NCBI GenBank assembly: GCA_040390065.1
Contig: JAZJZE010000017.1
Span: 1 to 64,000 of the forward strand
DNA from: a bacterium
GTDB lineage: Archaea; Thermoplasmatota; E2; JACPAO01; JAHFTW01
DNA: 64,000 nucleotides
Direction: 5' to 3'
Shown: positions 18,290 to 54,634 of the stretch, piece after piece
Numbering within the stretch: the stretch's first letter is position 1
Layout of the letters: every line of letters begins with the position of its first letter
Program-made: the position numbers and the translations under genes
The notes under the pieces: generated by a model
Databases searched by the model: none
Told to the model about the DNA's origin: nothing
What the model saw: the letters and a program-made list of their open reading frames with translations, nothing else

Positions 18290-19396
18290 ATGAAACGGAC
18301 GCGAGATGCTAACTGGACGCCCACGTCTCGATGGGGGCGGCAAGGGGCCGCGGTAGCGGTCGTTGCTGCACTCCTATTCTTGGGAGTCCCTGGCAGGGCG
18401 GTTCCGGAGGTGACCCCGGTTGGAGCTGTGTTCGCCCGCGGGGCCCAGGACTGCCCAGGCACCTCGGCTGGCGTCACATGGAATGCGGTCGGAAACGCTC
18501 CCGACACGGGGCCCCGAGATTGGAAAGTCACGACGACAATCCATTGGAACAGGACCAGCCTTGTCCTCTCGGGATTGTCCACCCGGACCGTCGAGGCCAG
18601 CGGGGAAGAGTCCCACGAATCCACGTTCACGGCCGCTGCCGGCGAACAGCGTACGACTTCGGCGGAAGCGCCCCTTTGTGGGAATTGGGGGGCATGCCAG
18701 GCGGTCTCTCAACTCCAGTACTTCGACACGGCTCAGAACACATGGCGCCCGGCCCTCCAGCCACCTTCTACCGATGTGCAGTGGGCGGCTTCGGCCCGCT
18801 GCTTCCCGTGCCCCGTCGCGAGCGCAGGCAATCCCCAAACCGACCCTTCACTCCTTGTCGGTCAGGCAACCTGCGGGGCAGGCCAGCAGCCTAACGTGGG
18901 GCTGCCGCCGGCTCACGCGCTCCCGATTCGGATTGGCGTTACAATCGCGGACAGCCTCCATGCGGCGGACGCGCCAACGTACGAATGCCACGCGCTCCAC
19001 GACGGTTCCGACACTGATTGGCGGAGGTGCGAAACCGTCATCCCTTCCGGGAGCGGCGACCGCGACAAGGTTTGGGACCCCGTCATCCTGTACAACGAGT
19101 CGGGAACGGTGCACGCCACGACCGGTTCGGCCCACGTCATGATGTACAAACCCTACGGAAACGGGGGTGAGCAATGGGCGTACTGGGCGTTCATCGACTA
19201 CAAGGACGGCGAGGAAGTGGGCTGTCGCTTCTGTAGCGACTCCGGAGGGGCCAATACTCCGCCCGTTACAAAGGTGGCGGCGGGCCTGAGCCACGAGCAG
19301 GGCCGCTGCGTCCAGGTCAACGACTATGTTTGTGAGGACGTCCCCGACCTGGAGCCCAGCGGTGCTTTCGGAGGCGCGCTCTATTTGGACCCGTGA
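18290..19396 (+). CDS. Hypothetical secreted Cys-rich protein
   Basis: Hydrophobic signal AAVAVVAALLFLG; about a dozen Cys; atypical codon usage. Confidence 0.6.
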   Translation: MKRTRDANWTPTSRWGRQGAAVAVVAALLFLGVPGRAVPEVTPVGAVFARGAQDCPGTSAGVTWNAVGNAPDTGPRDWKVTTTIHWNRTSLVLSGLSTRTVEASGEESHESTFTAAAGEQRTTSAEAPLCGNWGACQAVSQLQYFDTAQNTWRPALQPPSTDVQWAASARCFPCPVASAGNPQTDPSLLVGQATCGAGQQPNVGLPPAHALPIRIGVTIADSLHAADAPTYECHALHDGSDTDWRRCETVIPSGSGDRDKVWDPVILYNESGTVHATTGSAHVMMYKPYGNGGEQWAYWAFIDYKDGEEVGCRFCSDSGGANTPPVTKVAAGLSHEQGRCVQVNDYVCEDVPDLEPSGAFGGALYLDP

Positions 19397-22019: not shown

Positions 22020-22092
22020 TCAACCGAAGCAACAGAAGCAACCGAGTGGGCGCCGTCTCCGTGGTGTCGGTTGCCTCGTTTGTATCGGTTGA
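22020..22092. repeat. Family A palindromic element (9-nt periodic arms), empty copy
   Basis: TCAACCGAAGCAACAGAAGCAACCGA-21 nt-TCGGTTGCCTCGTTTGTATCGGTTGA. Confidence 0.88.
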
Positions 22093-28466: not shown

Positions 28467-28698
28467 GCACCGGCCACTGGACGGCGCCTAAAAAGGCGCC
28501 CGTCTGTAGTCGGTGCGCCGAAGCGAAGCGAGGGAACGCTCCGGCTGCGTTTGCGCGACCGCAGCGCCGGACTCGGCGAGGGGAGAGGCATATGTGGGGG
28601 GTAAGGTGGGCCGTGTCGTCCAGGCCAGGGCCGGTGCGTGTCTGTTCAAGCGACGCGAGGACGTCCCGTCTTTCCTTGACCACCGTCGGCTCGGACCA

Positions 28699-29145
28699 TC
28701 AACAGATGAAGCAGATGCAACAGATGCCGTGCGCCGGGGGGCGTGACCCACGGACGTATGCGATCCTCGGGGCCGCGATGGAGGTGCACAGTGAGGTCGG
28801 CGCAGGCTACCTGGAACGAGGATACCAAGCCTGCCTGGCCCGAGAACTCGCCTTGCGGCGAATTCCGTTCGAGCGGGAGGTCGAACTCATGATGGCGTAC
28901 AAGGGCCAACCGGTCGACTGTTCGTATCGTGTCGACTTCGTCGCGTTTGGTGAGGTTCTGATCGAACTCAAGGCCATCCGCGAGGTGGGCGGCGTCGAGC
29001 GCGCCCAGATCTTGAACTACCTCAAGATGAGCGGCCTGGATACGGGCCTTCTCGTCAACTTTGGCGCCGAGCGCCTTGAGTGGGAACGCTTCACGTGGTT
29101 TGCCCGCAAGACTCCGTCCTCTGTTTCATCTGTTCCATCTGTTGA
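28699..29145 (+). mobile_element. Candidate autonomous family A element: GxxExxY nuclease bracketed by 26-bp inverted arms
   Basis: Left arm TCAACAGATGAAGCAGATGCAACAGA (28699-28724) and right arm TCTGTTTCATCTGTTCCATCTGTTGA (29120-29145) are 23/26 complementary and sit exactly at the nuclease domain boundaries. Confidence 0.7.
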
Positions 29146-29323
29146 AAGCTATGGGGGGAGTGGTGGGGACACGTTGCCGCCCTGGGCGCCGCCGGGCTCG
29201 AGCCCGCTGCCCAGCTCGAACGTGGTTCGTCACGGCTCGACACAGACGGACTCGGCGTCATCGGCGTCATCCCCGTTCCCCCCGCCGGGCCATGGCAAGG
29301 CCAGCCCGGAGAAGCCCTCATAG
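28706..29323 (+). CDS. GxxExxY protein (PD-(D/E)XK nuclease family)
   Basis: TYAILGAAMEVHSEVGAGYLERGY, RVDFV..IELKA, QILNYLK, GLLVNFG; the ORF starts in the left arm and reads through the right arm into a low-complexity tail. Confidence 0.93.
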   Translation: MKQMQQMPCAGGRDPRTYAILGAAMEVHSEVGAGYLERGYQACLARELALRRIPFEREVELMMAYKGQPVDCSYRVDFVAFGEVLIELKAIREVGGVERAQILNYLKMSGLDTGLLVNFGAERLEWERFTWFARKTPSSVSSVPSVESYGGSGGDTLPPWAPPGSSPLPSSNVVRHGSTQTDSASSASSPFPPPGHGKASPEKPS

Positions 29324-31880: not shown

Positions 31881-31934
31881 CCATTCGACGGGGCACCGCG
31901 ACAAACCGCCAGGCTGCGTCGGCGCCCGTTGGTA

Positions 31935-31960
31935 TCGGTTGCATCGGTGGCGTCGGTTGA
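31935..31960. repeat. Family A solo arm
   Basis: TCGGTTGCA TCGGTGGCG TCGGTTGA. Confidence 0.78.
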
Positions 31961-46765: not shown

Positions 46766-46854
46766 TCAACCGAAGCAACAGAAGCAGCCGAACGACGGTC
46801 GGTCGGTTGCGTCGGTTGCGTCGGTTGGCAGGCCGGCGTCGTCGGGTCGGTTGA
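46766..46854. repeat. Family A palindromic element, empty copy
   Basis: TCAACCGAAGCAACAGAAGCAGCCGA (25/26 identical to the 22020 arm), then TCGGTTGCGTCGGTTGCGTCGGTTGG, plus an extra TCGGTTGA at 46847-46854. Confidence 0.88.
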
Positions 46855-54505: not shown

Positions 54506-54608
54506 GCAGGTGCCGTGGATTTCGGGGGTCTTAACATCATCGCGCGTGGGCTGTCTCGCCCGGGCGGGGCGGCATCTCCTTGCCGTACCGGTTGGTCGTG
54601 CCGCGTCA

Positions 54609-54634
54609 TCTGTTGCATCGGTTGCATCTGTTGA
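54609..54634. repeat. Family A solo arm
   Basis: TCTGTTGCA TCGGTTGCA TCTGTTGA. Confidence 0.82.

Follow-up and report, generated by a model that had tools for sequence, protein, structure and literature searches.

The window analysed here is a 64,000-nt stretch of archaeal DNA (contig JAZJZE010000017.1 of assembly GCA_040390065.1, positions 1 to 64,000, forward strand), which represents contig C17 of the source genome G000, a metagenome-derived assembly of 2.68 Mb in 50 contigs (66.8% GC, 89% complete). A palindromic cassette of 447 nt (28699-29145) carrying a gene of the GxxExxY family lies in this window, flanked by the genes for aRF1 (TIGR03676, 448.7 bits against a cut-off of 234.7) and the archaeal UMP kinase pyrH (TIGR02076, 197 bits against 158). 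An earlier note on this DNA had placed the cassette between these two genes, and the scores above the curated cut-offs confirm the placement. The note had also read two inverted arms from the sequence, each built of three 9-nt units: TCAACAGATGAAGCAGATGCAACAGA at 28699-28724 and TCTGTTTCATCTGTTCCATCTGTTGA at 29120-29145, complementary at 23 of 26 positions. This description holds, and a repeat search even lengthens the pair to 31 nt (28699-28729 and 29115-29145), with 84% complementarity and 385 nt in between. The units follow the pattern nAACAGATG in the left arm and its complement in the right arm. As had been claimed, the left arm supplies three in-frame ATG codons, at 28706, 28715 and 28724, which share the frame of the open reading frame (ORF) at 28592-29323. 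The claim that the 447-nt span contains no stop codon and reads out via the right arm is equally correct; the frame stays open until the stop codon at 29321-29323, which gives a protein of 205 aa counted from 28706, and its tail past the right arm is a low-complexity segment of ~60 residues.

The repeat is strongly over-represented in the window. The two-unit motif CAGATGNNNCAGATG, with at most one mismatch, occurs eight times against 0.19 expected, and none of 100 shuffles reached this count. When the two flanks of the nuclease domain were compared, the inverted-repeat score was 18.5, and the maximum among 16 shifted-position controls was 10.0. Both arms pair in the minimum free energy and centroid folds of the 465-nt single strand (z -3.83), and none of 100 shuffles folded equally well. 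The focal element has no target-site duplication, its two junctions reading ...GGACCA/TCAAC... and ...GTTGA/AAGCTA.

The enclosed domain was assigned to PDDEXK_3 (PF13366; E 1.2e-34, 119.6 bits, cut-off 22) and also to TIGR04256, GxxExxY (129 bits, cut-off 35). PDDEXK_3 is the only family in the Pfam search of the enclosed ORF; the same search revealed no DDE, HUH or serine/tyrosine recombinase and no known transposase family in the focal gene. The residues D64, E74 and K76 of the PD-ExK signature, together with E13, Q88 and the G..E..Y motif, are invariant in all 21 aligned sequences, that of the window included. The AlphaFold2 model (pLDDT 95.2) consists of two helices, a four-stranded sheet and a helix followed by two strands. 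Its top Foldseek match is the Cas4 protein SSO0001 (E 7e-5), followed by DinG, the AddAB nuclease domain, lambda exonuclease, RecE, MGME1 and Hjc, while solved structures, when searched by sequence, yielded no meaningful match (best E 0.86). Judging from the conserved residues and the model, the predicted enzyme is most likely an active nuclease. It shares the fold and the catalytic D-ExK with nucleases of the Cas4, AddB, RecB-family and Hjc types. Nevertheless, it differs from them in being only 120 aa long, in lacking an Fe-S cluster domain or helicase partner, and in its context, which is a palindromic cassette rather than a CRISPR or repair operon. The closest homologues of the focal protein are bacterial, with 64% identity at best. 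Peptides encoded by the arms can be recognized as the ends of database proteins (MTQMTQM... and ...SASSAPSAVSN). In the available part of a 2012 survey of PD-(D/E)XK enzymes, the function of PDDEXK_3 is given as 'Unknown' (PMC3424549), and the main texts of the literature searched, seen in part, gave no function for GxxExxY/PDDEXK_3 and no tie between the family and repeats.

The earlier note had regarded the nuclease cassette as the gene-bearing member of a dispersed palindrome family, and G000 agrees with this, since it holds about 30 gene-less hairpins as well as solo arms. The generic three-unit pattern CNGAW-N4-CNGAW-N4-CNGA was found 81 times at a period of 9 nt, four times at a period of 8 and twice at a period of 10. 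The arm type of the focal element, referred to here as family A, forms 31 inverted pairs: 29 short hairpins of 54-86 nt, one pair of 151 nt that overlaps another pair, and the focal 447-nt element, which alone encloses a gene. Several dozen unpaired family-A arms are also present, some of which are chance matches and some of which belong to larger repeats. Only the arms are conserved, as the hairpin loops vary in both sequence and length. The palindrome often reaches 1-5 nt past TCAAC. The lack of a visible target-site duplication, already remarked on for the focal element in the earlier note, extends to the family: at offset 0, flanking direct repeats are lacking in 26 of 30 elements, and offsets 1-3 revealed no repeat of consistent length. 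The length is a multiple of 3 in 16 of the 30 short pairs. Most of the family-A hairpins are intergenic (26/29); the other three, of 75, 60 and 63 nt, lie in frame within coding-like ORFs. Copies with a length that is a multiple of 3 may survive in protein loops and linkers because four of the six reading frames of the arms are open. The features located in the window are listed in Table 1.

Table 1. The cassette, its parts and related repeats located in the window.
Feature	Position	Strand	Remarks
Whole palindromic cassette: left arm, GxxExxY domain, right arm	28699..29145	+	447 nt; the only long one among 31 paired family-A elements
Left arm, three 9-nt nAACAGATG-type units with three in-frame ATGs	28699..28729	+	Repeat search, motif count
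Right arm, reverse complement of the left arm (84% over 31 nt)	29115..29145	-	Translated ..SSVSSVPSVE..
GxxExxY / PDDEXK_3 nuclease ORF, 205 aa from the first arm ATG	28706..29323	+	Domain ~28754-29092; D-ExK kept
Degenerate 9-nt-periodic array, GGCGTCATC repeats; minus strand GATGACGCC, CCGA-type unit	29245..29271	-	~100 nt past the right arm; direct-repeat family
Gene-less 75-nt hairpin, in frame in a surface loop of seryl-tRNA synthetase (SerRS; ORF 43035-44456, minus)	43678..43752		Read as QQMKQNKQIAGSPSASSAASVPSVD
Gene-less 73-nt hairpin, arm variant TCAACCGAAGCAACAGAAGCAACCGA	22020..22092		De novo screen, pair search
Gene-less 63-nt hairpin, arm variant TCAACCGAAGCAACAGAAGCAACCGA	46766..46828		Pair search
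Solo arm, TCAACAGATGCAACCGATGCAACAGATG on the minus strand, intergenic	54607..54634	-	Motif and pair search
Solo arm variant, TCAACCGACGCCACCGATGCAACCGAT on the minus strand, downstream of pheS	31932..31960	-	Pair search

The degenerate array beyond the right arm is possibly the remnant of a further arm. Many solo arms (C8 16956-17843, C9 218087-218114, C9 574953 and 54607-54634 in the window) share CGACGnCGGG before TCAAC, with inner sequence such as GGCCTGnCAGCCCCCGGnCGGGGCGAGC, and appear to be the ends of larger composite repeats. We also considered whether the hairpins arose from the cassette by internal deletion. A single 8-nt match (GCCCGCAA beside the right arm) is shared by the SerRS hairpin and the 3' end of the focal gene, and the loops are otherwise unrelated, so that no such claim is made. 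A small perfect palindrome unrelated to the 9-nt arms, GGCGCCTAAAAAGGCGCC at 28484-28501, surrounds an A-rich TATA-like stretch immediately upstream of the aRF1 start.

Two of the three in-frame hairpins lie elsewhere in G000. A 570-aa frame at C9:388904-390613 contains LigB-type dioxygenase and L-PSP (RidA) domains on either side of a 60-nt in-frame hairpin in the linker, and this ORF may represent two genes fused by the hairpin. The other is a 3047-aa frame at C5:345964-355104 with ketosynthase (KS), acyltransferase (AT), acyl carrier protein (ACP), ketoreductase (KR), dehydratase (DH) and phosphopantetheinyl-transferase domains, which from its predicted domains resembles a polyketide synthase (PKS) or a polyunsaturated fatty acid (PUFA) synthase; the 63-nt hairpin is again in frame in a linker. 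These two hairpins share the QQM...SVPSVD reading frame. A de novo screen of G000 identified further hairpin families (GGAATCCACnGAATCCAC, AACCACTGAACnCACTGAA, GGCGGCCTGGGAGAACAGGA and others), of which only the low-GC periodic ones are meaningful, as the mirror-repeat control is high in this GC-rich genome (55 vs 80 merged). GxxExxY itself gave six matches at five loci in G000, and each reasonably complete copy lies within arms of its own. A copy on C5 is split over two frames and is enclosed by inverted copies of GGCGGCCTGGAAAAACAGTGAACC at 19012 and 19557, a repeat that has 14 arms across the genome, mostly in short hairpins. Contig C3 holds an intact copy, with a weak partner downstream and, upstream, a GAATCCACC/GAATCCACA array that is dispersed as well; it also holds a C-terminal fragment that terminates in a variant right arm.

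The earlier note had asked for inverted 9-nt-periodic arms at the domain boundaries in other genomes, and these were found in both archaea and bacteria. For this comparison, 160 nt upstream of the domain were aligned to the reverse complement of 160 nt downstream, and the 99th percentile of shifted-position controls was taken as the threshold. Among 28 archaeal loci tested against 431 controls, after two loci with short flanks had been skipped, 22 exceeded the threshold and 20 exceeded every control. The corresponding numbers for 80 bacterial loci and 1155 controls were 68 and 50. The layout is thus present in 90 of 108 independent loci, including one in the isolate genome record of Oligosphaera ethanolica DSM 24202. 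The bacterial loci span more than ten phyla, with Planctomycetota, Acidobacteriota, Chloroflexota, Verrucomicrobiota, Bacteroidota, delta- and gammaproteobacteria and Nitrospirota among them. Their arms are strikingly uniform, following ATCC-RCAGATK-n-CRCAGATK-nn-CRCAGATT (consensus ATCC-RCAGATK x3). Those of the archaeal genus vary from copy to copy (CGCCGATTn, CGCGGATTn, CACTGAAnn, CACGAATTn, CGCAGATGn, CACGGAAnn) in three units of 9 nt, rarely 10. The core of the repeat unit throughout the family is C-N-G-A-T/A. In one genome of the genus, G008, arms with a 10-nt period are common, made of CCGATTTTCA and CGGATTGGCA units, and 53 were counted at this period compared with 0-9 in each of the other 40 related genomes.

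Of these 41 related genomes, which include G000, every one of the 13 in the genus has GxxExxY (1-8 matches each), as opposed to none of 12 from other genera of the same family and one of 16 more distant ones. The arms follow a similar distribution: they reach at least three times the control count in 10 of the 13 genomes of the genus and are near control in 10 of the 12 from other genera, the exceptions being G019 and G022. A bacterial example is given by the Pyrinomonadaceae genome G041, which has three GxxExxY genes and 30 occurrences of the arm pattern against none in the control; all 20 sampled sites are gene-less hairpins.

The arms carry signs that their repeated motif is recognized. The unit core C-A-G-A-T-K and the preceding C-R are conserved, with an inter-arm match of 0.83-0.99, and the spacer position is variable with the lowest match, 0.68. 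Since the spacer both varies and pairs worst, the repeated motif is kept more than perfect pairing. In 16 archaeal elements, unit identity is 0.80 within an element and 0.34 between elements, a between-element value that is lowered somewhat by units parsed in different registers. In nine of nine elements that parse in the C-N-GA register, the base N is identical in all four parsed units (A in three, C in two, G in three and T in one). Judged on these sequences, independent drift of six units would not give such uniformity.

Co-variation of the arm sequence with nuclease phylogeny, another expectation of the earlier note, is supported by the protein tree of 108 sequences, obtained after one sequence with a stop codon and those shorter than 100 aa had been removed. 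The bacterial sequences group into a single large clade whose arms are CAGATT or CAGATG; the copies from archaea branch more deeply and are more diverse, and arm variants cluster with clades. The natural variants CAGA, CCGA, CGGA and CTGA co-vary with the protein. Homogeneous three-unit arms were then tallied per variant across the 13 genomes of the genus. Where a resident gene carries the variant, the median is 36 arms per genome-by-variant cell after removal of the gene's own arms (n=15), compared with 3 elsewhere (n=37), with a Mann-Whitney p of 4e-4 and a within-genome permutation p of 0.0017, both overstated because the genomes are kin and some copies are untyped. The arms had been expected to be enriched only in hosts of the matching nuclease. 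They are enriched there, but they are not confined to these hosts, and orphan types are common.

At the level of presence and absence, hairpins and cassettes are gained and lost between related genomes. The hairpin in SerRS, an essential enzyme, adds 25 residues, as translated from the open frame (QQMKQNKQIAGSPSASSAASVPSVD), to a variable surface loop. It is missing in 10 of 10 congeneric SerRS sequences that cover the region, and a contig from a related organism in a sister sample skips 43659-43791. Likewise, none of 12 congeners has GxxExxY in the 1.5 kb preceding aRF1. Synteny of pyrH next to aRF1 is retained in seven of these and lost in five. The spacer between the two genes is 102-166 nt in three congeners, one of which has a short CACGGA-type hairpin. 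It is 650 nt in the closest relative, G004, with an unrelated membrane-protein-like ORF, and ~1 kb of unrelated sequence with differing ORFs in G007, G008 and G012. The spacer is a hot spot of variable content among the 12 congeners. Relatives thus lack both the element in the aRF1-pyrH interval, where the earlier note had suggested looking for an empty site, and the hairpin in SerRS, but no exact joints were obtained. In the nearest relative, the SerRS loop and the aRF1-pyrH spacer are too diverged to give a nucleotide-exact empty site. Contigs from the sample that is the probable source, and from two sister samples, gave none for the focal element, most joints being cross-matches to other hairpin copies. 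This weighs against the reading of the cassette as a mobile element, which is taken up below together with its alternatives.

Several known systems resemble the cassette in part. The nearest in architecture is the 23S rRNA intervening sequence (IVS), for example in Coxiella burnetii and Leptospira, in which a small ORF also lies in a long stem of inverted short tandem repeats. According to the available text on the Coxiella IVS, the S23p ORF is located in a stem that carries three tandem GACAGAT heptamers on the 5' side, and the IVS is cut out of the RNA by RNase III (PMC4990558); the CAGAT core is common to these heptamers and the arms described here. The same text, in the part available, terms IVSs selfish and sporadic in distribution, with a mobility that has long been suspected and is unproven and an ORF thought to serve it (PMC4990558). 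Nevertheless, there are distinguishable differences. The cargo of the GxxExxY cassette is a PD-(D/E)XK nuclease, whereas that of the IVS is S23p (PF05635). The units are 9 nt long, and the cassettes lie outside rRNA: a gathering-score scan with Rfam found no rRNA in the 80 bacterial loci (the sole match was one unrelated cobalamin riboswitch), and the focal copy is located between aRF1 and pyrH. Moreover, the GxxExxY arms have many gene-less copies, some of them in frame in proteins. The earlier note had called the system undescribed. The palindromic cassette family is indeed not described in the literature searched, although in the 23S rRNA IVS an architectural relative has already been described.

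A second comparison concerns repetitive extragenic palindromes (REPs) and their associated gene RAYT (REP-associated tyrosine transposase), including the doublets known as REPINs. In both systems, a low-copy gene has inverted flanking copies of a short repeat that also occurs across the genome as palindromic doublets, the target is not duplicated, and each gene lineage has its own repeat variants. RAYT belongs to the HUH/Y1 transposases. Such a domain is missing from the focal ORF, in which only PDDEXK_3 was found. In addition, REPs are described in the text available to us as 20-40-nt palindromes with GTAG or CGTC heads (PMC3733652), whereas the focal arms begin with TCAAC and are non-palindromic arrays of 3x9 nt, and the gene lies inside one palindrome.

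The three in-frame hairpins of family A (SerRS, LigB/L-PSP and PKS-like) also recall the Rickettsia palindromic elements (RPEs). [quoted passage not shown] By analogy, the SerRS hairpin is an archaeal counterpart of these elements. No linked gene is named for RPEs in those sections (PMC10969869), whereas a gene-bearing form exists for the 9-nt arms, and the family-A elements are shorter (54-86 nt), are 9-nt periodic and occur in an archaeon, with such arms in many bacterial phyla. MITEs and insertion sequences, finally, have terminal inverted repeats common to gene-bearing and short gene-less forms, as seen here; the present elements differ in having no target-site duplication, no known transposase and no conserved interior in the short forms. 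The words 'endonuclease' and 'RAYT' are absent from the accessible sections of the same review (PMC10969869).

The architecture, the dispersal, the conservation across phyla and the matching of variants are direct observations. To account for them, we regard the locus, with confidence that is evenly divided, as a selfish palindromic cassette resembling an IVS or a REP/RAYT system, the nuclease of which recognizes its own repeats. The cassette would be a unit in which a predicted PD-(D/E)XK nuclease gene of ~120 aa is nested between two inverted arrays of three 9-nt units. The nuclease would bind the repeat units of its own arms, either at both ends or in an extruded hairpin, and would cut there. 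The break would then lead to copying or movement of the palindrome, through repair templated from another copy as in homing or through excision and re-insertion, and the gene-less hairpins would be mobilized in trans. Whether recognition and cutting of its own arrays by the nuclease is what spreads the palindromes is, in our judgement, a question with about equal weight on its two sides.

Several observations weigh against such a role of the nuclease, and many of them favour another agent. In this alternative, the hairpins are spread by host replication or repair working on palindromes, or by an unidentified enzyme. The nuclease would be cargo, as would the four-helix-bundle protein of the IVS, or else a secondary invader of hairpin loops; it might home into hairpins already present or have another function such as defence or addiction. 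We consider this possible but doubtful. Hairpins are abundant without a detected nuclease in G019, a genome of the same family and another genus, where 74 arm matches were counted against 10 in the control and all of the sampled ones are short canonical CGCAGATT hairpins. This assembly, which is 83% complete in 280 contigs with many of the arm matches on small contigs, has no GxxExxY, PF13366 or PF05635 match. G022, also without a GxxExxY match, has about twice as many arms as the control (42 vs 20). Orphan variants also occur within the genus: G001 has 157 CGGA arms, yet its only gene has CGAA-type arms, and there is no cognate gene for 80 CAGA arms in G002 or for 62 CGGA arms in G009. Conversely, G033 has a GxxExxY gene with no detectable arms at the gene and few hairpins. 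Across the 13 genomes of the genus, the copy number of GxxExxY is only weakly correlated with the total number of arms (Spearman 0.26, not significant), and the hairpin loops are neither conserved nor related to the gene. In addition, a nuclease of 120 aa has no joining activity, so that mobility must borrow host repair or replication. Arms and protein would also co-vary if they were simply inherited together as a linked unit, and the genomes of one genus are not independent of each other.

The same alternative gains from a parallel without a nuclease. Genes of PF05635, the 23S-IVS protein, a non-nuclease with a four-helix bundle, are present in 3-10 copies in each of five bacterial genomes that also have GxxExxY (G041-G045), and 12 of 20 such loci, each of the 12 scoring at least 16, lie within inverted arms of tandem 7-8-nt repeats (GTGGATA, GTTGAGA, CAGAAGT, GAATTGT). 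GAATTGT arms are dispersed in G043, with 109 occurrences against none in the control and many short hairpins among them; for GTTGAGA, the reversed pattern is of no use as a control, since this unit is nearly mirror-symmetric. A search of five archaeal genomes, G000 included, gave no PF05635 match. As these genes share the layout and the dispersed hairpins, the design of arms plus a small ORF needs no nuclease. However, a nuclease that is mere cargo or an invader fits poorly with the tie between arm type and protein family, 9-nt CRCAGATK arms accompanying GxxExxY (68/80 and 22/28 loci) and 7-8-nt arms accompanying PF05635. It fits no better with the archaeal arm variants, which track the protein clade and are uniform over the parsed units, or with the enrichment of matching variants within the same genome, and the orphan cases come from assemblies that are only 66-90% complete.

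The arms could instead act mainly in RNA, where the long stem would be processed, as by RNase III in the IVS, or bound by a protein to release, stabilize or autoregulate the ORF transcript, for which no separate promoter is evident; the gene-less hairpins would then be terminator-like or regulatory stems. The resemblance to the RNase III-excised Coxiella 23S IVS (PMC4990558, in the part available), the pairing of the arms in predicted folds and the intergenic position of 26 of 29 family-A hairpins are in keeping with this idea, which we nevertheless consider improbable. The inter-arm mismatches compatible with G:U pairing number 24 in the sense and 26 in the antisense orientation, of 126, and the lack of a bias on the sense strand is easier to reconcile with recognition at the DNA level or by a protein than with selection on one RNA strand. 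The unit position with the lowest conservation is also the one that pairs worst, as described above, which indicates that the motif is kept rather than the pairing. None of the 80 bacterial loci lies in rRNA, and Rfam has no family for the hairpin, an E-value scan of eight loci giving only spurious miRNA-type matches to the perfect hairpin. A function in RNA would also leave the dispersal, the insertion into coding genes and the variant matching unexplained, even though it could coexist with mobility as DNA. That the arms are chance similarities or an assembly artefact has a negligible probability in view of the shuffle and shifted-position controls and the recurrence of the layout in 90 of 108 independent loci, among them one from an isolate record.

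In a wider and more speculative view, the GxxExxY cassettes and those of the four-helix-bundle proteins (S23p or Avd-like) could be two branches of one widespread and unrecognized class of mobile 'hairpin cassettes', in which a small nucleic-acid-binding protein reads the tandem 7-9-nt repeats in its own inverted arms and spreads both itself and gene-less hairpins. We put this forward tentatively, as a possibility with less than an even chance. If it is true, the class would explain how rRNA intervening sequences originated, as well as RPE-like in-frame peptide insertions in essential proteins and many unexplained palindromic repeats of bacterial and archaeal genomes, and the variable base of the 9-mer would be a simple and evolvable code of protein-DNA specificity. 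The present findings also link three old puzzles, namely the nature of rRNA intervening sequences, the source of in-frame palindromic insertions in essential genes and the identity of what spreads orphan palindromic repeats. For the large GxxExxY family, the present analysis provides a concrete and testable context, with an invariant active site, a 3x9-nt inverted array that extends from Acidobacteriota to an archaeal genus, and natural specificity variants of the array that co-vary with the protein. The repeat-nuclease pairs could therefore serve as a natural panel for the evolution of DNA-recognition specificity.

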